Part shown: piece by piece, positions 71 to 48,705 of the stretch | How positions within the stretch are numbered: the stretch's first letter is position 1 | Layout of the letters: each line of letters starts with the position of its first letter | Source of the DNA: Patescibacteria group bacterium | GTDB lineage: Bacteria; Patescibacteriota; Microgenomatia; Levybacterales; UBA12049 | Assembly (NCBI GenBank): GCA_035510695.1 | Contig: DATKGO010000062.1 | Location: 1-56,707, forward strand | Direction of reading: 5' to 3' | Length of the DNA: 56,707 nt | The notes under the pieces: model-generated | Database searches by the model: none | What the model was told of the DNA's origin: nothing | What the model saw: the letters and a program-made list of their open reading frames with translations, nothing else | Translations under genes and position numbers: made by a program

Positions 71-196
71 AGGATTATTAGTTTGTCCTGTTTTTTGGGA
101 AAAGTCAAATTTTAACCGAAAACTTATTTACGAAAAGTATATTACGTTATCAGCCAGACGCGAAAGACTTTTCATATTTGGTATATAATCAAATTA

Positions 197-664
197 ATGA
201 AGAAATGTGATCATAAAAGTGTGGGAATTTTGGTTTGGAAAAATGAAAAGCTGCTTTTGATTGAACGTGCCAGATTTCCCTTTGGTTTTGCTCCTCCCGC
301 AGGTCACGTGGATGCGGATACCACTTTTGAAAGTGCCGCAAAAAGAGAATTAGCTGAAGAGACAGGTTTGATAGCCACATCATTGCAAGTAGTTGCGATG
401 GGGAAGAAAGAAAATGTTTGTCGACGAACTGACGACAAATATCATGAATGGAAAATTTATTGTGTAGAAACAGAAGGTAGTTTGAAGACTGATCCGGCAG
501 AAGTTAAACAGGTAAATTGGCTTTCTTTAGCAGGGATAAGAGAATTGGCTGCTTTGACGAATCGGTATCTTAAAGGTGAGATATCCGAGACGGAATGGGA
601 GAAACGGCCGGGGATTGAACCTGTATGGTATGATTGGTTCAAAGAATTGGACATACTGAAATGA
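197..664 (+). CDS. NUDIX hydrolase
   Basis: Nudix box core RELAEETGL preceded by GHVDADTTFESAAK. Typical length of 155 aa. Confidence 0.85.
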   Translation: MKKCDHKSVGILVWKNEKLLLIERARFPFGFAPPAGHVDADTTFESAAKRELAEETGLIATSLQVVAMGKKENVCRRTDDKYHEWKIYCVETEGSLKTDPAEVKQVNWLSLAGIRELAALTNRYLKGEISETEWEKRPGIEPVWYDWFKELDILK

Positions 665-1104
665 AAAAGATAAAAATTATTACTCTTTGTGCAAGTCTCA
701 CGCATTACCGCCAGGTTTTGGACATCGAGAAACAATTAAAAAAATTGGGATATAAAGTTAAGTTGCCGCCTACGGCAAACGTCATGAAACGGACGAATAA
801 TTTTGATGTGTCAACGTATAAAACTTGGTATAAGAATAAAAATGATTATAAAAAGAAAACACAACTGATGAAGGCTCATTTTAAAAAAGTGTTGGCTGCG
901 GACGCGATTTTAGTAACCAATTTTGAGAAAAATAGTTTGCCCGGCTATATCGGTGGAAATGTTTTGATGGAGATGACAGCGGCGTTTATGAATAAGAAAA
1001 AGATTTTTATTTATAATCCCATTTCAGAAGATTTGGGAATAAAAGAAGAGGTCTACGGATTAAATCCCATTTTTATAGATGGAGATTTGGAAAAAATTAA
1101 GTAA
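661..1104 (+). CDS. nucleoside 2-deoxyribosyltransferase-like protein (tentative)
   Basis: ATG at 661 overlaps the NUDIX stop (ATGA coupling). The pattern ADAILVTNF...GYIGGNVLMEMTAAF...KKIFIY resembles the deoxyribosyltransferase-like fold; this is recalled from memory, not searched. Confidence 0.4.
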   Translation: MKKIKIITLCASLTHYRQVLDIEKQLKKLGYKVKLPPTANVMKRTNNFDVSTYKTWYKNKNDYKKKTQLMKAHFKKVLAADAILVTNFEKNSLPGYIGGNVLMEMTAAFMNKKKIFIYNPISEDLGIKEEVYGLNPIFIDGDLEKIK

Positions 1105-1111
1105 AGAGTAC

Positions 1112-1522
1112 GTCATTGCGAGGAGGGTTAAGAGCGTCAATGAGAGGAACAAAAAAGGTGTCATTCTGAGGCGTAGCCGAAGAATCTCTCGCGAATGCGA
1201 GAAAGATTTATGTCGTACTATGTTTATATTCTGACAAATAAATCTCACACACTATATGTTGGTGTTACTAATAATTTACCACGAAGACTTCAGGAGCACT
1301 CTCTTAAGTTAATGTCAAGCTTTACCAAAAGATACAAAATTGATAAGCTTATTTACTGTGAAATATTTGAAAACGTTTACGATGCAATAAGTGCTGAGAA
1401 AAAAATAAAAGGTTGGACAAGAAAGAAAAAAATAGAGTTAATAAAATCTATTAATCCGGAATTTAAGGAATTACAAATTATCTGAAACAAGTTCAGAGAT
1501 CCTTCACTGCGTTCAGGATGAC
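1112..1522 (+). mobile_element. GIY-YIG gene bracketed by inverted GTCAT-hairpin repeat units (candidate mobile or homing unit)
   Basis: The left unit is GTCATTCTGAGGCGTAGCCGAAGAATCTC (1160-1188), with a degenerate unit at 1112-1147. The right unit (1496-1522) reverse-complements to GTCATCCTGAACGCAGTGAAGGATCTC. Confidence 0.5.
1210..1485 (+). CDS. GIY-YIG nuclease family protein (UPF0213/YhbQ-like)
   Basis: MSYYVYILTNKSHTLYVGVTNNLPRRLQEH carries the GIY/YVG motifs. The size (91 aa) is typical. The start was moved to the ATG at 1210. Confidence 0.85.
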   Translation: MSYYVYILTNKSHTLYVGVTNNLPRRLQEHSLKLMSSFTKRYKIDKLIYCEIFENVYDAISAEKKIKGWTRKKKIELIKSINPEFKELQII

Positions 1523-1547
1523 ATTTTCTATTGGTTCAAGCTAGCTT

Positions 1548-2222
1548 TTAATGATTTTCAGGAGATTTCGAAGTGACGCTTGTGAGGTTTAAATACGCGG
1601 CCAGGGTGAGGTAATACAGCCAGTGCAGCATAAAAGTATAGACGACTCCATATTGGACGTTTAGAATAATTACCGGGAAAATAAAGCCGCCGAGAAAAGC
1701 CGCAGTAGTGGTTACTGCCCCAAAGAAAAAATCTCTTTTGAAAAGATATAAATGACTTAATCCGAAAATCAAAGCGAAAAGCAGCATGACTAGTTGATTT
1801 GAAAAGCCTAAGTCTTTTAGCATGGCGATGATTGAAATTGCGCCAACTTGCTGGGTTAAAATATTAAACGATTTAGTTACAATGTAGCGATAACTCATGG
1901 ATGCAAAATAGAATTTTTTTGCTTCATATTTTTGCAAAATATTTTGTTTTACGTGTTGTTTCATAAATTTGTAAAAAAGAAAAATGAAAAGGTAAAAGAA
2001 AAATAAAAATATAAACGCGATAGGGGAAAAGGTTAAAAAAAATTGCTTCAGATAAGGGGAATAGTATAAAAAGAAAATAATTGTAGAGAGAAGGAAAAGA
2101 ATCGAGGCTTTTTTATATTCACTAACATAATTTATTTTTTGACCTGAAAGTCTATTAAAGATTATGCCACCTGCGAAAAAGGCCAATATAAGATTTAATA
2201 GAGTAAGAGTAGTGTGCGGCAT
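1548..2222 (-). CDS. polytopic membrane protein, possibly a degenerate CPBP-type intramembrane protease homologue
   Basis: Multiple hydrophobic helices. FGLSHLYLF resembles CPBP motif 2, but the EExxxR motif is not seen (QQVGA in its place). Confidence 0.4.
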   Translation of the reverse strand: MPHTTLTLLNLILAFFAGGIIFNRLSGQKINYVSEYKKASILFLLSTIIFFLYYSPYLKQFFLTFSPIAFIFLFFFYLFIFLFYKFMKQHVKQNILQKYEAKKFYFASMSYRYIVTKSFNILTQQVGAISIIAMLKDLGFSNQLVMLLFALIFGLSHLYLFKRDFFFGAVTTTAAFLGGFIFPVIILNVQYGVVYTFMLHWLYYLTLAAYLNLTSVTSKSPENH

Positions 2223-2292
2223 AGCGCTAACGTTATTTTAACATAAGGAGTAAATTATTTGACAAACCTATAGACTGCTGTACTATAAGAGT

Positions 2293-2577
2293 ATGTCGCA
2301 TGTTTTTTATACTTCACGAAAGAGGCATATCTTCGATGAATTTATCTATCCGGTTTCATTGATAGCCCCAATTATGACAATTCCACAGCTTTTAAGTATT
2401 TGGTTGCAAAAATCTACGCAAGGAATTTCAATATTGACTTGGTCGGCTTATGCTTTAGTATCTTTGTTATGGATTATCTATGGGGTAATTCATAAAGAGA
2501 AGCCGATTATCGTTAGTAATTTTTTACTTTTCATTTTAGATACATCAATTGTAATCGGAGTTTTATTGTATTCTTGA
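2293..2577 (+). CDS. SemiSWEET / PQ-loop family transporter
   Basis: 94 aa with three predicted TM helices. PQ motif (IPQLLSIWLQKSTQGIS) followed by WIIYG. Confidence 0.7.
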   Translation: MSHVFYTSRKRHIFDEFIYPVSLIAPIMTIPQLLSIWLQKSTQGISILTWSAYALVSLLWIIYGVIHKEKPIIVSNFLLFILDTSIVIGVLLYS

Positions 2578-2600
2578 GATTGTTTATTTTCAGGTTAGTT

Positions 2601-2609
2601 TGTTATAAT
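2601..2609 (+). promoter_or_regulatory. extended -10 promoter (TGtTATAAT) 7 nt upstream of ATG 2617
   Basis: TGTTATAATCCTCAGT-ATG with no Shine-Dalgarno. The same TATAATCCTCAGTA string recurs at 6730. Confidence 0.55.
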
Positions 2610-2616
2610 CCTCAGT

Positions 2617-3261
2617 ATGCCAAATTTTGTTCAAGCAAAATTAATTTCATTCTTCAGTCAATACCAAAAACAGACATTTAATAAAGCAGAGATTCTTATT
2701 TATCCCCGTACTGTTCCACAGGGAGTTTTTTATTTGCGAAAAGGCGAAGTGAGAATGTACGCGATCAACAAAAACGGCAATGAATTGACCATAAATATTT
2801 TTAAACCTCATTCTTTTTTCCCCATGAATTGGGTAGTAAATGATTTCAGGGATGATTACATTTATGAAGCGACTGTTGACGCAGAAGTTTTTATCGGCCC
2901 GAAAGACAAATTTTTGGCTTTTCTTCATCAGGAACCCGACATTATCTTTGATTTACTACAAAGAATTTACAAAGGATTAGGCGGTTACTTTTTGCGCATG
3001 GAATCGTTACTTACCGGGGACGCGTATTTTAAGACGGTTGTGGCAATTTGCATTTATGCAAGAAGATTTGGTGTAAAAAATGAAGATGCAAGCGGCTTTA
3101 CAGTTGATGTCACCCAAAAACAGTTGGCAGCTCTTGCCGGTTTGACCCGGGAGACAGTGACGCGGGAAATCAAAAAAATCGCAGATAAAAAATTGGTGGC
3201 TTATCAAGGCAAAACTTTGATAGTTTTGGATATAAATAGGTTGGAGAAAGAGATACTTTGA
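2617..3261 (+). CDS. Crp/Fnr family transcriptional regulator
   Basis: N-terminal cNMP-binding-like beta-roll (GVFYLRKGEVRMY). C-terminal HTH (TQKQLAALAGLTRETVTREIKKI). Confidence 0.8.
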   Translation: MPNFVQAKLISFFSQYQKQTFNKAEILIYPRTVPQGVFYLRKGEVRMYAINKNGNELTINIFKPHSFFPMNWVVNDFRDDYIYEATVDAEVFIGPKDKFLAFLHQEPDIIFDLLQRIYKGLGGYFLRMESLLTGDAYFKTVVAICIYARRFGVKNEDASGFTVDVTQKQLAALAGLTRETVTREIKKIADKKLVAYQGKTLIVLDINRLEKEIL

Positions 3262-3296
3262 TTTAAGATTTATGATTTAAGAATAAAGATAAAAAT

Positions 3297-3363
3297 GTCA
3301 TTCCCGCGAAAGCGGGAATCCAGTTAACAAAAAATGGATCCCTGGTTTGCGTCCAGGGATGAC
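3297..3363. repeat. GTCAT-hairpin doublet (REPIN/MITE-like)
   Basis: GTCATTCCCGCGAAAGCGGGAATCC, a 14-nt spacer, then GGATCCCTGGTTTGCGTCCAGGGATGAC. Each unit is a perfect 8-bp hairpin and the two units are in inverted orientation. Confidence 0.85.
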
Positions 3364-3441
3364 AAAAACGTTTAAAAATTGTAAAATAATTTAGCATTTC
3401 CTCTTTACAACACTCCGGTAATGTACTAATCTATAACACAT

Positions 3442-4650
3442 ATGAATGTCTCCTCGATTCGTCAGGATTTCCCGCTTCTTAGAAAAGATAAACCGGTTGT
3501 GTATTTTGATTCCGCATGTCAGAGTTTGCGTCCGCAACAGGTGATTGATGCTTTGGTTGAATACTACTCAGAATATCCGGCTTGCGGCGGCAGAAGCACA
3601 CATCGTTTGGCCGATCGGGTAACTAAAGAAGTTGAGAAAGCCCGGGAAACTGTCAGGAAATTTATTAAAGCAGCGAAAAAAGAGGAGATAGTTTTTACCC
3701 GCAATACCACGGAAGGAATTAACTTAATTGCTCATTCATTAGGCCTGCAAAAAGGCGACGTAGTTATCTCATCCGACAAGGAACATAATTCCGATTTAAT
3801 TCCCTGGCAAGTTTTGGTTGAGCAAGTGGGAATTGAGCATATTATTGTTCCATCTCGGGAAAATAACACTTTTGATTTGGCGGCTTTTGAACACATTTTA
3901 CAGAAGCAAAAATCGGTGAAATTAGTCGCGATGTGTTTTACTTCCAATTTGGATAGTAACACAATTCCGGCCGCGGAAATTATTAAACTTTCACATAAAA
4001 AAGGAGCCTTGGTTTTGTTGGACGGCGCAGTAACCATTGCTCATCAGCCGATTGATGTGCGAAAGTTGGATGTCGATTTTCTGGTTTTCTCAGGACATAA
4101 AATCTGCGGGCCGTCAGGAATAGGAGTTTTGTACGGTAAACAAAAATTGCTGGAGAAATTATCACCTTTTATGGTTGGCGGAGATACGGTGGCTTGGTCG
4201 ACCTATACTACACATGAATTTTTGCCGGTTCCGGAGAAATTTGAAGCCGGGCTGCAGGATTATGCCGGAATTATCGGTTTAGGTAAAGCATTAGAATATG
4301 TTGAAAAGATCGGTCTGGATAATATTGCTAAACATGAAAAAGAATTGACTGTATATATGGCAGAGTTATTGGGGCAAATTCCCAATATGCACATTATCGG
4401 GCCGGATGCTAAAGAGCGTGGGAGCATTACTTCATTTTATATTCCGGGAATTGATTCTCATCAAATTGCCTTAATGCTGTCCGAGTCGGCAAATATTATG
4501 GTGCGTTCCGGTCAGCATTGTGTACATTCTTGGTTTGCGAAAAGAAATATAAAAGGGTCGGTACGAATTTCTCTGTCTTTTTATAATACGAAAGAAGAGA
4601 TAGAATACTTTGGCAAACAATTGAAAAAAGTTGTATCTGTTTTGGGTTGA
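3442..4650 (+). CDS. sufS: cysteine desulfurase, class V aminotransferase (SufS/CsdA-like)
   Basis: PLP-lysine context SGHKICGPSG and catalytic Cys context RSGQHCVH. Length 402 aa. Confidence 0.85.
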   Translation: MNVSSIRQDFPLLRKDKPVVYFDSACQSLRPQQVIDALVEYYSEYPACGGRSTHRLADRVTKEVEKARETVRKFIKAAKKEEIVFTRNTTEGINLIAHSLGLQKGDVVISSDKEHNSDLIPWQVLVEQVGIEHIIVPSRENNTFDLAAFEHILQKQKSVKLVAMCFTSNLDSNTIPAAEIIKLSHKKGALVLLDGAVTIAHQPIDVRKLDVDFLVFSGHKICGPSGIGVLYGKQKLLEKLSPFMVGGDTVAWSTYTTHEFLPVPEKFEAGLQDYAGIIGLGKALEYVEKIGLDNIAKHEKELTVYMAELLGQIPNMHIIGPDAKERGSITSFYIPGIDSHQIALMLSESANIMVRSGQHCVHSWFAKRNIKGSVRISLSFYNTKEEIEYFGKQLKKVVSVLG

Positions 4651-4671: not shown

Positions 4672-5610
4672 ATGTTTTGTTTTTTAGCACTTATTGTTTT
4701 TGCGATAATGGGAATTTTCAGCGCTTCAAATCGCGAGTTGGCGAAGGAGGCTTTAGCTTGTGTTTTTACGCGCGTAACTTTCCGTCCTTGCAGGACAAAT
4801 TTCAAGGATAAAACCAAAGCCATGCTGTTGGGTAAATTAGTAACGCGATCGGCTGTGGTAGCCAAATTTGTCAATAAAAATTTTGAATTATTATCTTGGG
4901 CATTTTTTATTTTATCGGTCGTTAGTACGATTTGGGTAGCCAAGGGAGTCTATGATTATTATCTTTATGGTAACTGCAATGGTTTGAATTCATCCGGTTT
5001 TTGCGTTTTTGATCCGAAAGGTCTAAATAGCAGTGTTTCCTCTCTGAATGAAAAATGTTATGTAAAACCGCCGACCGAAGCAAACGTTACCTTGAAAAAC
5101 AGTAATTTTTCATCTTTCCCAGTGAAAAATCCGCAAGCCAAGAAGAAAATCATTTTCATCGGCTGCTATTTATGTGATTACACCAGGGCTGCTTATCCGC
5201 AAATTAAACAATTATTAAAGCAAAATCCCGATGTTAGTTTTACCTTCGCGCATTTCCCGGTAAAAGCCGGCAGCTCATATTTGTCCAATTACGATTACTG
5301 CACCTACAAAGAAGACCCGAAGAAGTTCTGGAACTTTAACGATTTATTGTTTAGTTCAAGTAAAGCAGATTTATATGATAATCCAAGCTATGCGGATAAA
5401 GAGGCAGTGAAGGCGGGGTATAATTTGGATCAGCTGCATGCCTGTATTAATTCTGCTGCAACCAAAACAGCGGTTGAGGCGCAGCAAAATGAAATTATAA
5501 AAACCGGAATTTATGGAACCCCGACTATTTTTATTGATGGTACTCCATACATCGGTCCGAAACCGTACCGTGTCTACGAACATGGTCTTAAACCCTGGTT
5601 CTTGTTCTAA
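4672..5610 (+). CDS. membrane-anchored DsbA-like thioredoxin-fold oxidoreductase
   Basis: N-terminal TM segments with paired cysteines. C-terminal thioredoxin fold with CxxC (CYLC) and GTPTIFIDG. Confidence 0.6.
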   Translation: MFCFLALIVFAIMGIFSASNRELAKEALACVFTRVTFRPCRTNFKDKTKAMLLGKLVTRSAVVAKFVNKNFELLSWAFFILSVVSTIWVAKGVYDYYLYGNCNGLNSSGFCVFDPKGLNSSVSSLNEKCYVKPPTEANVTLKNSNFSSFPVKNPQAKKKIIFIGCYLCDYTRAAYPQIKQLLKQNPDVSFTFAHFPVKAGSSYLSNYDYCTYKEDPKKFWNFNDLLFSSSKADLYDNPSYADKEAVKAGYNLDQLHACINSAATKTAVEAQQNEIIKTGIYGTPTIFIDGTPYIGPKPYRVYEHGLKPWFLF

Positions 5611-9450: not shown

Positions 9451-9530
9451 GTCATCCCGAACTTGTTTCGGGATCTAAAAAAGCTTGCCCTGAGCTCGTT
9501 TCAGGGATGCTGAATCAAGTTCAGCATGAC
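9451..9530. repeat. GTCAT-hairpin composite (three units)
   Basis: The forward unit is GTCATCCCGAACTTGTTTCGGGATC. On the other strand GTCATGCTGAACTTGATTCAGCATC is fused to the CCCTGAAACGAGCTCAGGG hairpin. Confidence 0.8.
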
Positions 9531-9585
9531 AATTTTATGTTAGGATTGTGAACTATTACTTGTTAATTTGTTATACTTAATATTA

Positions 9586-16671: not shown

Positions 16672-18024
16672 TTAGGAACTCGGAACAGGAGTTAATGTAG
16701 GTGTATCAGACTGTGTTGGCGCGGTAGTAGGAGTATCGGTGGGGTTGGCAGTTGGCGTGGGAGTCGGTGTTGAACTTGAAGAATTTGATGAGCCGCTGAA
16801 AGTGACACTCGGATTATTATTATTCGTATCGGTAACTCCAAAATTACTCGTAGTATCCTGAACTGTAAAAGTATCTGTCCCGGCATTTTGCGAATTAATA
16901 CTAAATGTCGCTTGTCCATTTTGAGCTTGAATATTTACCGGCGAAGAAGAGCCATTGATGGTAAAGCTTGAGTCATTGGAAGTTTGAGTGATGGTAAGAT
17001 TTTCGCTGGAAGACACATTGTTTTTATTACAATCACGAATATCCACAGTAAACGTGACCGCTGAACCTGTGTTGGATGTAGCAGGAGATGCAGGATAAAC
17101 GTCTGAATAATAGGAATTGGCTGTGCCCGAACCTGTGGAGCAACTAGAATTTCCCGAGCTGCTGTTACTTGTGCCGCTAAAGGCTATACTCGGATTATTA
17201 TTATTAATATCGGTTACGGTAAATGATTTGGTTGTATCCTCCACTTTAAGTGTAACCGTTCCGCTGGCTTGGGATGTAACAGAAAAGCTGGCCTGACCGT
17301 TTGAAGTAGTAATGTTGTAGGGAAGATTATTTCCATTGATTTGTGTATTGGAATCACCCGAACTTAGAGAAATAGTTAAATTATCACTTACCGGCGCCGT
17401 ATTTTCATTACAGTCACGCAGTGTAACAGTTAAAGTTACCGAACCGTTACTCGCATTAATCGGAGGATTGGGATAAACATCGGAATACCAGGAATTGGCT
17501 ACGCCCGAGGCGGTAGTACAATTAGAGTTTCCCGAATTGTTGCTGGAAGTGTTGTCAGTATCTGTAACGGTTGTGTCAATGGTGGGTAGAGGAGCGTTTG
17601 TGGGTAAGGGAACAAGAGTCGGGACAGAGCTGGAATCGTCATATGAGTTGTTGTCGTCGGAACTTGAATTATCCGAAGTTCCCAAAACGTCAGTATCTGT
17701 AGGCGAAGGAAGTGTAATAGTTGGCTCCGAATTATCAGACGATGTGGAATTATACATGTCATCTCCGGAATTTTTAGAAGGTGATTTCATTTGAGACAGC
17801 GCATAACCTCTATACCACATGGCTAGGGTAATAAAAGCCACGAAAGAAATAAAGATTATTACTAAAATTTTATATTTAGTAACAAATGAAGTAAATTTTC
17901 TTAGCTGTTCTGAATTTAGATTGGGAATACGAGATTTTATCTGAGAAAGATGGGTTGAATCGAGGAGATTTGGAAGCTTGGGGAGTTTGGGTAATTTGAA
18001 ATTTTCCGGTAGTTTTAGTTTCAT
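16672..18024 (-). CDS. membrane-anchored surface protein with two tandem ~125-aa Ig-like repeats
   Basis: The first repeat reads C.T.SG.ANS.YSDVYP...T.T..RDCN.N...S.NLTI...F.V.D.T..F.VTD.NNNNPS..FSG.SNSS and is followed by a second copy. S/T/N-rich, with a PT-rich C-terminus. Confidence 0.7.
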   Translation of the reverse strand: MKLKLPENFKLPKLPKLPNLLDSTHLSQIKSRIPNLNSEQLRKFTSFVTKYKILVIIFISFVAFITLAMWYRGYALSQMKSPSKNSGDDMYNSTSSDNSEPTITLPSPTDTDVLGTSDNSSSDDNNSYDDSSSVPTLVPLPTNAPLPTIDTTVTDTDNTSSNNSGNSNCTTASGVANSWYSDVYPNPPINASNGSVTLTVTLRDCNENTAPVSDNLTISLSSGDSNTQINGNNLPYNITTSNGQASFSVTSQASGTVTLKVEDTTKSFTVTDINNNNPSIAFSGTSNSSSGNSSCSTGSGTANSYYSDVYPASPATSNTGSAVTFTVDIRDCNKNNVSSSENLTITQTSNDSSFTINGSSSPVNIQAQNGQATFSINSQNAGTDTFTVQDTTSNFGVTDTNNNNPSVTFSGSSNSSSSTPTPTPTANPTDTPTTAPTQSDTPTLTPVPSS

Positions 18025-21388: not shown

Positions 21389-21472
21389 ATTTGTTTAAGA
21401 CTGGTGCATCATGTTGGGGGATGGTTGTAGGAGATTACGTAAATAAACAAATAAAAGAATGAGAGAAAGATA

Positions 21473-21556
21473 GATTGCTTCGCTTCGCTCGCAATGACGT
21501 AAGACTGGATTCCCGATCAGAGCCTGTACTCGACCTGATCGGGGGTCGGGAATGAC
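21473..21556. repeat. GTCAT-hairpin composite (two units, both on the minus strand)
   Basis: Reverse complements are GTCATTGCGAGCGAAGCGAAGCAATC and GTCATTCCCGACCCCCGATCAGG...CTGATCGGGAATCC. Confidence 0.8.
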
Positions 21557-30236: not shown

Positions 30237-30301
30237 GTCATCCTGAACTTGATTCAGGATCCAGAAAATTAAAAAAGATTCCGGATCAAGTCCGGAATGA
30301 C
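30237..30301. repeat. GTCAT-hairpin doublet (REPIN/MITE-like) between rpsF and ssb
   Basis: GTCATCCTGAACTTGATTCAGGATCC, a spacer, then GATTCCGGATCAAGTCCGGAATGAC. Confidence 0.85.
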
Positions 30302-30309
30302 AGTAGTTT

Positions 30310-46584: not shown

Positions 46585-47799
46585 TTAGATAGTGATAAAG
46601 TTTTTTGAAGAATTGGTTAGCTGAATGAGTTTACCGTTTTGAATTGTATATAAGTCTTCAATTCGGATCCCGTATTTGCCATTTAAACCCTGCCTGCCGG
46701 CAGGCAAGTATATTCCCGGTTCAAGAGAAAAGACCATACCTTCTTTTAGTTCGTCTATGGAGTTTGGTGAGAGAGAAGGAGCTTCATGGACTTCCAGACC
46801 GATTCCGTGACCGAGAGAATGGGGAATAGAGGGATAACCTTGAGAAATAATATGTTGTCGTGCAATGTGATCGAGATCTGCAGCGTTAACAATGTTGTCA
46901 TTCCGGACTCGATCCGGAATCCAGTCTTTATCTCTCTGGATTCCAGCTTTTGCTGGAATAACAGAAGATGCTGAACTAAATTCAGCATGACGTTTAAATT
47001 TGGATTGCTTCGCTTCGCTCGCAATGACGTTAGTAATGAACGCCACTGCTTTTTGTTGTGCGGTTAAAACTGTTTCATAGACTTTAATTTCCTCAGCCTT
47101 TGGTTTACCGAAAAATAAAGTTCTGGACATATCGGAACAATAATTTTCAAATTTTACGCCAAAATCAAAAAGGACAAATTGATTGGGTTTTAATTTATTA
47201 TCACCGGTCAAATGATGGGGGATAGCTGCGTTTGCTCCGAATGCAACAATTGTCGAAAAAGATAGTTCAGCCCCCTGCTCGCGTATAAAATTTTCCAATT
47301 GATAAGCCAATTCTTTTTCAGTTATTGACTCATGAATTTGTTTAAGAATAAAAGTAAACGCGGCATCGCCAATAGCACAGGCTTTTTGAATAATTTGAAT
47401 TTCATCTCTAGTTTTTTGTTCTCTAAGTGTTCTTAAATTTACAGTTTTAAGTTCCGGCAATACTTTTTTAAATGTTACATATTCGGCAACGGTCAAATTG
47501 TCTCCCTCAAACCCGATGCTTTCTATTTTTTCCTCTGTTATAATTTTTTGCAGTAATTTAGAAGAGGAATTTTTTTGATTTCTTTCCAGAATTTGAAAAG
47601 TTGGAACTGCATCTTTAACCTGCTCGGTATATCTGGCATCAGTAATTAAATATTTGTTTGTCTTTGTGATAAACAGGTATGCTTCCCGTTCATCTTTAGA
47701 GAATCCGGAATAGCCTGTTAAATAAATAATGTTGGGAACGGAAGAAATTAGAAGAGCATCAAGGTGACTGGTATTGAGTAAATTGTGTAAGTAATCCAT
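46585..47799 (-). CDS. pepP: M24B Xaa-Pro aminopeptidase carrying a 44-aa repeat-derived insertion
   Basis: Pita-bread motifs FDFGVKFENYCSDMSRT, HSLGHGIGLEVHE, FSLEPGIY and IRIEDL. The insertion VIASEAKQS...WIPDRVRND is encoded by 46897-47028. Confidence 0.85.
   Translation of the reverse strand: MDYLHNLLNTSHLDALLISSVPNIIYLTGYSGFSKDEREAYLFITKTNKYLITDARYTEQVKDAVPTFQILERNQKNSSSKLLQKIITEEKIESIGFEGDNLTVAEYVTFKKVLPELKTVNLRTLREQKTRDEIQIIQKACAIGDAAFTFILKQIHESITEKELAYQLENFIREQGAELSFSTIVAFGANAAIPHHLTGDNKLKPNQFVLFDFGVKFENYCSDMSRTLFFGKPKAEEIKVYETVLTAQQKAVAFITNVIASEAKQSKFKRHAEFSSASSVIPAKAGIQRDKDWIPDRVRNDNIVNAADLDHIARQHIISQGYPSIPHSLGHGIGLEVHEAPSLSPNSIDELKEGMVFSLEPGIYLPAGRQGLNGKYGIRIEDLYTIQNGKLIQLTNSSKNFITI
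46897..47028. repeat. 132-bp block of four GTCAT-family hairpin units inside the pepP reading frame
   Basis: Four 27-nt units (46897-46923, 46936-46962, 46963-46989, 47002-47028) with two 12-nt spacers. Total is 44 codons. Confidence 0.85.
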
Positions 47800-47898
47800 T
47801 TATAAAATTTACAATTTTCAATTTTCAATAAGTATTCAATGTAACAATGTTTCAATGAAAATTCAATGTAAATTGTAAATTAGAAATTGAAAATTATT

Positions 47899-48705
47899 TT
47901 ATTTTGCTCCGACGGTTGGAGTTGTGGTAGTTGCGTTTGTTGGCTGAGCTGTCGGAGAAACTGCAACATTGATTGCCGGATCGGCGGCAACTTCGGGAAA
48001 ATCAATAATTCGATTAGCCACAATCATACTGGGAGTATTTTTATCGGGATAACCCATGATGAAAACACGATCACCGACAGCTAATTTGGAAAAACCGGAT
48101 TTAGTCAAATCGTCTACTTTGGTAAAAGTATAAGATTTAGTAATTGTTTCAACATCAATTAAGGTTTGCTTCTGGTCTTCCTTTAAAATATAAAATTGTC
48201 CGTTTGCCCGATCAATAGAACTGACAACGCCGGTTAGATAGGTGGGAGTGGTGATTACATCGATAAACCTTGCCAAAAGGTGTTGAGTATCCTTGTTATA
48301 TAAACCTAAAACGCTAACCAGGGTGCCTTTATTTAAATCGGAAATACCCATTGAAGCATTATTTGGAGATGAGAATTTAGTTATTTCGTCAACATCTACA
48401 ATCCGTATATTGTTTTGTACATCGTTTAAGGTAATTTGTGTACTACTTACATCGGTTATAGTTCCAACAATTCCACGTTTTTCAACCAATTTTAGCTTGG
48501 CAGTTTCTGAAACAACTTTTTCTCGTATTTGATTAATTTGATTTAATAAATTTTGGTCTGTGGGTTTAATTGTCGGCGACGGATTTTGACTGGGAGTCGG
48601 GGTGACGGCAAAAGATTGGGTATTGGTTGTTAACAATAATATTGCCAAGCATATTACTGTTATTAAGATTTTTTTTATGGATTTGAAATTGTTAAATTTT
48701 TTCAT
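47899..48705 (-). CDS. hypothetical secreted protein
   Basis: N-terminal signal or TM segment (ILITVICLAILLLTT...SFA). No recognisable domain. Confidence 0.55.
   Translation of the reverse strand: MKKFNNFKSIKKILITVICLAILLLTTNTQSFAVTPTPSQNPSPTIKPTDQNLLNQINQIREKVVSETAKLKLVEKRGIVGTITDVSSTQITLNDVQNNIRIVDVDEITKFSSPNNASMGISDLNKGTLVSVLGLYNKDTQHLLARFIDVITTPTYLTGVVSSIDRANGQFYILKEDQKQTLIDVETITKSYTFTKVDDLTKSGFSKLAVGDRVFIMGYPDKNTPSMIVANRIIDFPEVAADPAINVAVSPTAQPTNATTTTPTVGAK

Follow-up and report, generated by a model that had tools for sequence, protein, structure and literature searches.

Introduction

The locus described here raises the question of how a run of palindromic repeats can lie inside the gene of a conserved peptidase and be translated along with it. 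The DNA in question, hereafter the window, is the whole of contig DATKGO010000062.1 (56,707 nt, or 56.7 kb; 37% G+C) from a metagenome-assembled genome (MAG) of a Patescibacteria group bacterium. The gene is a pepP-like gene for an M24B Xaa-Pro aminopeptidase/prolidase, and it carries an in-frame block of 132 nt. The reading favoured in the present study, with a probability of roughly 0.78, is that the block consists of four CGTC/TGTC-tagged palindromic repeats of the family that includes dRS3/NTS, the Rickettsia palindromic elements RPE-4 and RPE-6, and the Ssn-related motifs (SRM), and that these are Ssn-associated selfish hairpins retained in a permissive loop of the enzyme.

Two previous studies provide the framework for this reading. 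Di Nocera, De Gregorio and Rocco (2013, BMC Genomics; PMC3733652) described a class of repetitive extragenic palindromes (REPs) with a CGTC or TGTC tag (variant CCTC), a stem of 8–9 bp starting with AT, a loop of 4–5 nt and, in most cases, a CCA tail. In their survey, CGTC-1 of Neisseria is dRS3, while CGTC-1 and CGTC-4 of R. conorii are RPE-6 and RPE-4, respectively. They listed in-frame intragenic copies, including clusters encoding 43–82 residues, and found the family in five phyla, Patescibacteria not among them, and lacking a dedicated transposase. More recently, Chenal et al. (2025, Nat Commun; PMC11893778) redefined the oriented Neisseria repeat as NTS (CGTCATTCCCGCGMAVGCGGGAATCYRG), within the broader class of SRM. 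The partner proteins of Neisseria and Wolbachia, SsnA, bind the folded motif in single-stranded DNA (ssDNA) only and not in RNA, and cut a few bases 5' of the tag; the C that follows the palindrome is needed for binding and the three bases that precede it for cutting. The meningococcal SsnA lowers transformation by NTS-bearing DNA (PMC11893778).

A Cluster of Tagged Hairpins Read Through in Frame

Reading the minus strand of pepP gives the block translation VIASEAKQS-KFKR-HAEFSSASS-VIPAKAGIQ-RDKD-WIPDRVRND, without a stop codon or frameshift, exactly the 44 codons of the initial annotation, which had also described three units in one orientation and one reversed; three are indeed forward on the coding strand. 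That annotation divided the block into 27-nt units and 12-nt spacers, and while the number of units (four, here u1 to u4; Table 1) is upheld, their boundaries need a small correction. The natural unit is (C/T)GTC, a hairpin and C(CA), 27–29 nt in all, and u3 begins two bases within what had been taken as the first spacer. Three perfect 8-bp hairpins are present (46900–46920, 46940–46959 and 46968–46988), and a fourth is imperfect (47004–47025). The pattern ATTCC-N8-16-GGAATCCAG has three matches in the window compared with 0.00 expected from 100 shuffles, and a 156-nt stretch folds into four separate hairpins on either strand (z = -5.3 and -5.9), with none of 200 shuffles reaching the same stability. 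The hairpin block is therefore not a product of chance.

Each of three units has a close counterpart between genes of the same window: u1 is near-identical to the unit at 30274–30302, u3 has the same stem as the unit at 9504–9532, and the 26-nt core of u4 is identical to 21473–21498. The type represented by u4, termed class B (GTCATYCTGAGCGAAGCGAAGRATCTC), is also the one that flanks GIY-YIG genes in many phyla (see below). The block is open in only two of the six frames, both in the orientation that is used. One canonical unit by itself leaves five of the six open, owing to its high G+C content and to the fact that only the complement of the tag gives rise to a stop.

Relationship to Known Repeat Families

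The units agree closely with the CGTC-tagged REPs of PMC3733652. Tags are TGTC in u1, CGTC in u3 and u4, and TGTT, one base off, in u2, while stems and loops are 8 bp and 5 nt (u1), 8 bp and 4 nt (u2) and 8 bp and 5 nt (u3), all starting with AT. The agreement of u4 is partial, in that it has a 5-bp outer stem starting with AT around an inner GA/GC-GAA-GC/GA core. The tail is CCA in u1, u2 and u4 and CTT in u3. Altogether, 14 units lie at seven loci across the 56.7 kb, mostly intergenic and often as inverted dimers. As in the clusters of that survey, which encode 43–82 residues, dimers and an in-frame cluster are found here, the latter encoding 44. In contrast, the class-B core, with its tandem G.A pairs and GNA triloop, is not among the four families of PMC3733652 as these are described in its text.

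Similar agreement is seen with the NTS/SRM motifs of PMC11893778, in which the palindrome follows a 5' GTC(A/T)(C/T) tag and precedes a conserved C. All four pepP units have the C on the 3' side, and on the 5' side GTC is present in u1, u3 and u4 and replaced by GTT in u2. One intergenic unit of the window, 3297–3323, agrees with the NTS consensus (GTCATTCCCGCGMAVGCGGGAATCYRG) at all 27 positions that follow the first base, and its first 24 nt are also those of a unit beside a gonococcal GIY-YIG gene. The pepP block extends a known phenomenon to a host group new for these repeats, with a unit type missed by the published SRM pattern. The hairpin units gave no match in Rfam, a full-text literature search for their translated peptides (VIPAKAGIQ, SFPRKRES and others) gave no papers, and nothing specific on palindromic or in-frame repeats in candidate phyla was found in the literature.

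Rickettsia palindromic elements lie in frame in unrelated housekeeping genes whose proteins are thought to stay functional by way of surface sites (Ogata et al. 2000, Science 290:347; reviewed in PMC10969869). The parallel with these elements, already drawn in the initial annotation, stands and becomes a relationship of family through the CGTC-tagged REP definition; the link to RPE-4 and RPE-6 rests on the equation of these with R. conorii CGTC-4 and CGTC-1 in PMC3733652. In both cases a conserved housekeeping gene is read through an in-frame insertion. They differ in that RPE-1 is about 100–150 bp long and has a conserved peptide of its own, whereas the pepP block is an array of units of about 27 nt whose peptides depend upon the frame.

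A GIY-YIG Nuclease Gene Flanked by Units

Near the left end of the window, units lie on both sides of a gene for a 91-aa protein with no domain other than GIY-YIG, the only GIY-YIG relative in the window and the likely partner of the repeats. Its solved relatives are the UPF0213 proteins 1ywl and 1zg2. This is the unit-ssnA-unit layout of PMC11893778, in which a gene for a GIY-YIG protein of about 94 aa has motifs on both sides, and here it spans 1160–1524. A homologous 94-aa open reading frame (ORF) lies among 16 NTS copies on a gonococcal chromosome, and the two proteins are 36% identical over 89 aa, end to end (pairwise E 6e-20; hhalign probability 99.5%). By its length and NTS flanks, the gonococcal ORF is presumably the SsnA orthologue; proteins of the Ssn system are assigned to CDD family cd10448 (PMC11893778). 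Its source, PLSDB entry NZ_CP119140.1 (L166), is a 2.17-Mb replicon of Neisseria gonorrhoeae that is filed as a plasmid and almost unannotated, but is evidently a chromosome.

A profile of the window protein, scanned against one genome per species, returned more than 590 relatives from many phyla, and flanks were counted at the best 80 loci, which come from Patescibacteria, Cyanobacteria, Acidobacteriota, Chloroflexota and other phyla. With a unit defined as GTCAT, a stem of at least 5 bp starting with AT, and then C, a unit (GTCAT-hairpin-ATC) lies within 200 nt of the gene at 65 of the 80 loci and on both sides at 38. These proportions, 81% and 48%, compare with 71% and 42% in PMC11893778. 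Unit density is 4.81/kb near the genes and 0.36/kb farther out, and orientations are biased to face outward (52:24 for plus upstream, 52:25 for minus downstream). Two other definitions were tried and dropped: the published SRM pattern, which recovers a single unit of the window and hardly any beside the GIY-YIG relatives, and a perfect stem of at least 6 bp, which finds units at only 16 of the 80 loci because it shuts out those of class B.

The flanks of these relatives carry mostly class-B units. Across 62 distinct class-B sequences the inner pair 8–14 is Watson–Crick in 61 (34 G-C, 25 A-T), where shuffling gives 29.8 on average and never more than 44, and about 46 of the 62 have G.A at positions 6/16 and A.G at 7/15. 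Judged by these pairings, the class-B hairpin is structurally constrained. An unrelated MAG (locus L005) has the same arrangement of an upstream unit and a small hairpin as the region around 1160. In the window, this small hairpin (TCGCGAATGCGAGA) lies immediately 5' of the start codon of the GIY-YIG gene, and an additional, degenerate unit is found at 1112–1148.

The host sets this system apart from the one described in PMC11893778, where Patescibacteria are not mentioned. Also unlike that system, many different stems coexist, and the degenerate pattern does not recover most units of the window, among them two of the pepP four and those of class B beside the GIY-YIG gene.

Probable Tolerance of the Insert by the Enzyme

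The host gene appears to encode a normal enzyme. Its product, identical (100%) to a database entry 'aminopeptidase P family protein [Patescibacteria group bacterium]', has the Creatinase_N and pita-bread M24 domains of the M24B family (Pfam E values 2.2e-20 for Creatinase_N and 5.5e-59 for Peptidase_M24, the latter in two stretches). All positions that never vary among 120 orthologues are conserved in it, the metal ligands D212, D223, H331, E360 and E381 among them, and the synteny of pepP with hisS is also kept. An AlphaFold2 (AF2) model built on the 120 orthologues retains the pita-bread fold, with a mean predicted local distance difference test (pLDDT) score of 92.6 and a predicted TM-score of 0.89, and can be superposed on structures of prolidases and aminopeptidase P (TM-scores 0.84–0.90 per target length).

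Alignments to the PDB relatives T. maritima aminopeptidase P and E. coli YpdF run to about residue 255 and resume at about 306, breaking at the insert. When the block is removed in silico, the loop becomes AFITN|NIVNAADLD, the length seen in the shortest orthologues (e.g., P0069), and by this comparison the block is a precise addition that replaced nothing. In the model, a long helix (residues 235–257) runs on into the first 18 or so insert residues, with pLDDT falling from 87 to 64. Residues 271–300 score 64, 48 and 55 per block of ten, with values below 50 for 280–291, and the fold resumes at 297–319. The insert is probably a disordered excursion of 44 residues from an otherwise normal enzyme, as predicted by the model. 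The turn that carries it presumably belongs to the helical outer surface of the pita-bread domain and is remote from the metal centre.

The suggestion of a tolerated surface-loop insertion, made when the block was first noticed, is borne out by the retained fold, the poorly modelled insert and the intact catalytic columns, with surface exposure itself deduced. The accompanying choice between tolerance and selection for frame-preserving insertion falls to tolerance, as the preserved frame is best read as survivorship (see below). A comparison with empty sites had also been proposed. The closest orthologues do lack the insert, but with no orthologue above 65% identity there is no sister genome to supply a true empty site.

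Insertions at the Same Loop of Orthologues

P0002, P0003, P0007 and P0026, the orthologues that the tree places closest to the window's PepP, all lack the insert, which indicates a lineage-specific gain in the present gene. Yet most remarkable is the loop itself, which is expanded to 29–60 residues in 28 of the 120 orthologues, the mode being 21. A census of insertions of at least seven residues placed 26–27 at this loop and 12 at a second site after EPGIYLP, with at most one at any other internal position. On a neighbour-joining tree, the presence of the insert needs 21 Fitch changes, compared with 25.1 for random labels, but since the tree is weakly resolved the scatter of insert-bearing orthologues is an indication rather than a count.

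Loop DNA was read for seven orthologues, the window's own pepP included, and all seven contain CGTC-type units that differ in type, number and frame. The window gene has four, read in frame 0, and P0016 has several. P0032 and P0040 have doublets that start with a class-B unit, in frame +1. The loop of P0070 is occupied by an inverted doublet of the NTS type, 51 nt long; P0106 carries one canonical NTS unit, read in a different frame again, and P0013 a degenerate pair. The insert junctions of all seven fall within a few bases of each other. A single ancestral insertion was considered as the sole explanation and rejected, given the differing types, numbers, frames and junctions and the scatter of the bearers on the tree, although P0016, P0032 and P0040 may share one event. 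This recurrent hot spot in the PepP loop is the main point of interest of the present study. A metagenome scan for relatives of pepP gave, among the matches listed (about nine close relatives), none with units.

Units also occur in coding sequence elsewhere in related genomes. In P0040, an in-frame doublet (RHSGKPKAHPESDSGQARMT) lies at residues ~207–228, before the FVLLDFG strand (10610–10675 of L004, a related Microgenomates contig). On the same contig, units at 4450–4520 and 5000–5075 are in frame in a gene for aminopeptidase N (Peptidase_M1; …FSHSGEQCDSRINSGQ… and …LSSRGAVRRGDLPRNDK…), and an NTS-type unit at 17415–17495 provides the last residues and stop of hisI (…SFPRTRESRK*). An unrelated hairpin with an 11-bp stem (AQPLAQPQGLT) is found in the N-terminal domain of P0032 (residues ~50–64; L003, 6995–7030).

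The PepP of the window has a second, smaller insert. This is an in-frame palindrome (CCTGCCTGCCGGCAGGCAAG; 46689–46708) that specifies seven residues, AGRQGLN, at about 367–373, between the metal-ligand motifs EPGIY and RIED. It is absent from the PDB relatives and most orthologues; AGR(Q/H/Y)G(L/I)x is present there in eight of the 120, and a further four carry different inserts a few residues beyond the site. The 20-nt palindrome was considered as a repeat family in its own right and rejected, as it has no other true copy in the window or the fetched loci, and it is not a CGTC unit.

Other Units of the Window

The coordinates of all features are collected in Table 1. Ten further units lie at 1160, 1498, 3297, 3337, 9451, 9504, 21473, 21507, 30237 and 30275, and every one is intergenic. 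They often form inverted pairs 11–13 nt apart, as in the doublets at 3296, 9451 and 30237, and some lie directly downstream of genes (e.g., 9 nt past rpsF and 36 nt past a Crp-like gene). While about 89% of the window is in ORFs, only one of its seven repeat loci is genic (binomial probability ~1e-5), which is the signature expected of selection removing genic copies.

Table 1. Positions of the pepP block, its units and the other repeat-related features of the window.
Feature	Position	Strand	Details
Class-B unit upstream of GIY-YIG gene	1160..1188	+	GTCATTCTGAGGCGTAGCCGAAGAATCTC, then small hairpin TCGCGAATGCGAGA
ssnA-like gene	1210..1485	+	91-aa single-domain GIY-YIG nuclease, likely partner of the repeats; Pfam GIY-YIG 1.7e-16
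Class-B unit downstream of GIY-YIG gene	1498..1524	-	inverted; GTCATCCTGAACGCAGTGAAGGATC
Intergenic inverted doublet	3296..3365		first unit, 3297-3323, is the NTS consensus
Intergenic doublet	9451..9532		third, partial hairpin fused
Two intergenic units	21470..21556	-	same orientation; second with nested hairpin in loop
Intergenic inverted doublet	30237..30303		between rpsF and ssb
pepP-like gene, M24B Xaa-Pro aminopeptidase/prolidase	46585..47799	-	404 aa, intact; ORF, Pfam, database identity, AF2 structure match
In-frame insert, cluster of four CGTC-tagged hairpin repeats	46897..47028	-	132 nt, 44 codons, PepP residues 258-301
u1	46896..46923	+	TGTC-ATTCCGGA-CTCGA-TCCGGAAT-CCA; reversed relative to pepP; encodes WIPDRVRND
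u2	46937..46963	-	TGTT-ATTCCAGC-AAAA-GCTGGAAT-CCA; tag mutated from GTC to GTT; encodes VIPAKAGIQ
u3	46965..46992	-	CGTC-ATGCTGAA-TTTAG-TTCAGCAT-CTT; encodes (R)HAEFSSAS
u4 (class B)	47001..47029	-	CGTC-ATTGC-GAGCGAAGCGAA-GCAAT-CCA (core GA GC GAA GC GAA); encodes VIASEAKQS

Two of the intergenic loci have additional structure. Within the unit at 21507–21556, the loop holds a nested hairpin of 29 nt (GATCAG...CTGATC) between intact ATTCCCGA/TCGGGAAT stems; SsnA is known to tolerate extensions at the loop position of the hairpin (Chenal et al., PMC11893778). At 9486–9508, a partial third hairpin (CCCTGA...TCAGGG) is joined directly to the AT of the adjacent unit, as if by overlap or truncation. 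Upstream of pepP, the intergenic region 47800–47900 is dense in TTCAAT/ATTGAAA repeats (caattttcaattttcaataagtattcaatgtaacaatgtttcaatgaaaattcaatg...). These have no relation to the hairpin units and may form an array with a regulatory or promoter role.

Proposed Origin of the Insert

A sequence of steps that could have led to the present gene may be proposed by analogy with the SsnA systems of Neisseria and Wolbachia. A unit would fold into its hairpin when DNA becomes single-stranded, as in replication, repair or transformation, and a GIY-YIG nuclease would bind the hairpin and nick a few bases 5' of the GTC tag. The GIY-YIG protein of the window may act in this way at class-B units, and perhaps at others. 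New copies could be seeded by the nuclease activity, or by the unit-ssnA-unit module behaving like an insertion sequence (IS). The cluster would have landed in the PepP loop, or grown within it, and is now translated. A genic copy of this kind could survive where its length is a multiple of three, one of the two stop-free frames is used, and the site is a permissive turn on the outer face of the protein. Since only two of six frames are open and the other ten units are all intergenic, the preserved frame is seen as survivorship under purifying selection and not as a designed property of the repeats.

Several observations weigh against this account, and against the assignment of the block to Ssn-associated repeats. 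The published search pattern for SRM (HGTCWYN(0-2)YYVSBRHN(0-5)WNVSBRGN(0-2)RNCYNB; PMC11893778) has its only exact match in the window at 3296–3323. Both u1 and u2 match with one substitution, a level that gives eight hits in the window compared with 2.97 expected, and u3 and u4 fail even with two substitutions. Since the pattern was built by hand from 29 genomes, failing it lowers strict membership rather than resemblance. The GTT of u2 differs from GTC within the bases whose importance for cleavage was shown by Chenal et al. At least seven compensated stems are present in the window but a single GIY-YIG gene, all of whose flanking units are of class B. NmSsnA is reported to be specific for sequence as well as shape, and loses activity when the palindrome sequence is altered with the hairpin kept (PMC11893778). 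Given this specificity and the diversity of stems, one enzyme may not serve all four pepP units. The closest PepP orthologue has 65% identity in the alignment (58% by BLASTP), leaving the comparison without a true empty site in a sister genome, and the exposure of the insert at the surface is deduced from low pLDDT and general knowledge of the fold. The contig index records no gene for exactly this PepP, and the sole independent assembly found covers 112–3324 of the window. No consistent target-site duplication was seen in the flanks of five complete elements; the pepP block is bordered by AAC at each end, perhaps by coincidence. To our knowledge, transposition of SRM units has never been demonstrated.

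Alternative Explanations

The alternative that survives best accepts the same repeat family but replaces passive retention with targeting. Ssn-type units, or the unit-ssnA-unit module, would still be mobile in Patescibacteria and prefer certain targets, being directed to the PepP loop and hitting, again and again in different lineages, the same few bases where one helix of the protein ends. An A-rich stretch followed by T, seen 5' of many unit copies, is a candidate preference. Directed insertion is considered unlikely, though it deserves more weight than any explanation that follows. If true, it would be the first natural evidence of de novo insertion of SRM/CGTC repeats, a step left open by both the 2013 survey and the 2025 Ssn paper. 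In a variant of this idea, Ssn would cut at the intragenic units and so restrict the recombination of incoming ssDNA at pepP.

Retention of selfish hairpins in a permissive loop can also be set against exaptation, in which the 44 residues would have gained a function in PepP (oligomer contacts, localisation or regulation) and longer loops would be selected. The expansion of exactly this loop in 28 of 120 orthologues and almost nowhere else is in keeping with such a role, as is the extension of the helix, at declining pLDDT, into the first residues of the insert. But the inserted peptides (VIASEAKQS..., CHSERSEES..., SSFPRKRES..., SLLRKQESMDSRFRGND) have no common sequence, length or frame, and it is the DNA hairpin that is conserved. 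Most orthologues, the closest included, do well without an insert, and the model scores below 50 for residues 280–291. A gain of function is improbable on these grounds.

A short-read assembler, walking through multi-copy repeats of 27 nt, could have created the block or altered the number of its units. The independent assembly mentioned above, a Logan contig (L165; SRR8676592), is 100% identical to the window over its length and ends exactly at the end of the NTS unit, so the repeats do break assemblies, and this suggests that the NTS unit is multi-copy in that sample. The 26-nt identity of u4 to an intergenic unit would give an assembler one such point of confusion. However, the sequences on either side are parts of one gene and in perfect register, with the loop of minimal orthologue length once the block is removed, and a chimera rarely rejoins the same gene at the same codon. 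The block is also a multiple of three in length and free of stops in the frame used, one of only two that are open, and analogous inserts occur at the same loop in orthologues from unrelated assemblies. An artefact is thus a poor explanation, slightly poorer than exaptation.

No better a case can be made for hairpins that act in the pepP mRNA, through stability, RNase processing or translational pausing. Many REPs have been argued to be transcribed and to act as RNA (Di Nocera et al., PMC3733652), the intergenic copies immediately past rpsF and the Crp-like gene are suitably placed, and GAAA-type loops are stable in RNA as well. Yet units of both orientations are present in one cluster, so only some would present the same RNA, none matches Rfam, the characterised partner protein binds ssDNA and not RNA (PMC11893778), and the conserved GTC tag and trailing C are features of strand-specific DNA recognition.

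The remaining two explanations have very little in their favour. REPs, bacterial interspersed mosaic elements (BIMEs) and REP doublets forming hairpins (REPINs), in the classical sense, are short extragenic palindromes with a GTAG tag, and their folded single strands are recognised by the REP-associated tyrosine transposase (RAYT), an HUH enzyme whose gene they flank. Mobilisation of the present units by such an IS200/IS605-type transposase, rather than by a GIY-YIG nuclease, would account for the shared architecture, that is, tagged palindromes, frequent REPIN-like inverted pairs and a mostly intergenic location. Both kinds of repeat also flank the gene of a small nuclease-type protein. But the tag is CGTC/TGTC and not GTAG, the unit-bracketed gene here and in 65 of 80 other genomes encodes a GIY-YIG protein and not an HUH transposase, and the CGTC repeats were reported to have no dedicated transposase (PMC3733652), which makes this explanation highly implausible. 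Just as implausible is a pepP pseudogene, inactivated by insertion and open by chance: although both the block and the AGRQGLN palindrome lie within the catalytic domain, the ORF runs for 404 codons with all invariant columns, the fold is predicted confidently around the insert, hisS synteny is kept, and similar inserts occur in many orthologues that cannot plausibly all be dead genes.

Conclusions

The analysis connects an unusual insertion in the coding sequence of an ultra-small, uncultured bacterium with a family of repeats whose partner enzyme has recently been characterised. It widens the range of that family to Patescibacteria and to a unit type, with a GA-GC-GAA-GC-GA core, that the published pattern misses. 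There is also a practical consequence for annotation, as VIPAKAGIQ, CHSERSEES, SFPRKRES and SRFRGND in the proteomes of candidate phyla are translated hairpin repeats rather than protein motifs. Finally, the recurrent use of one PepP loop by different units provides a natural data set for asking whether these repeats still move, and where in a protein some 20–45 extra residues are tolerated.

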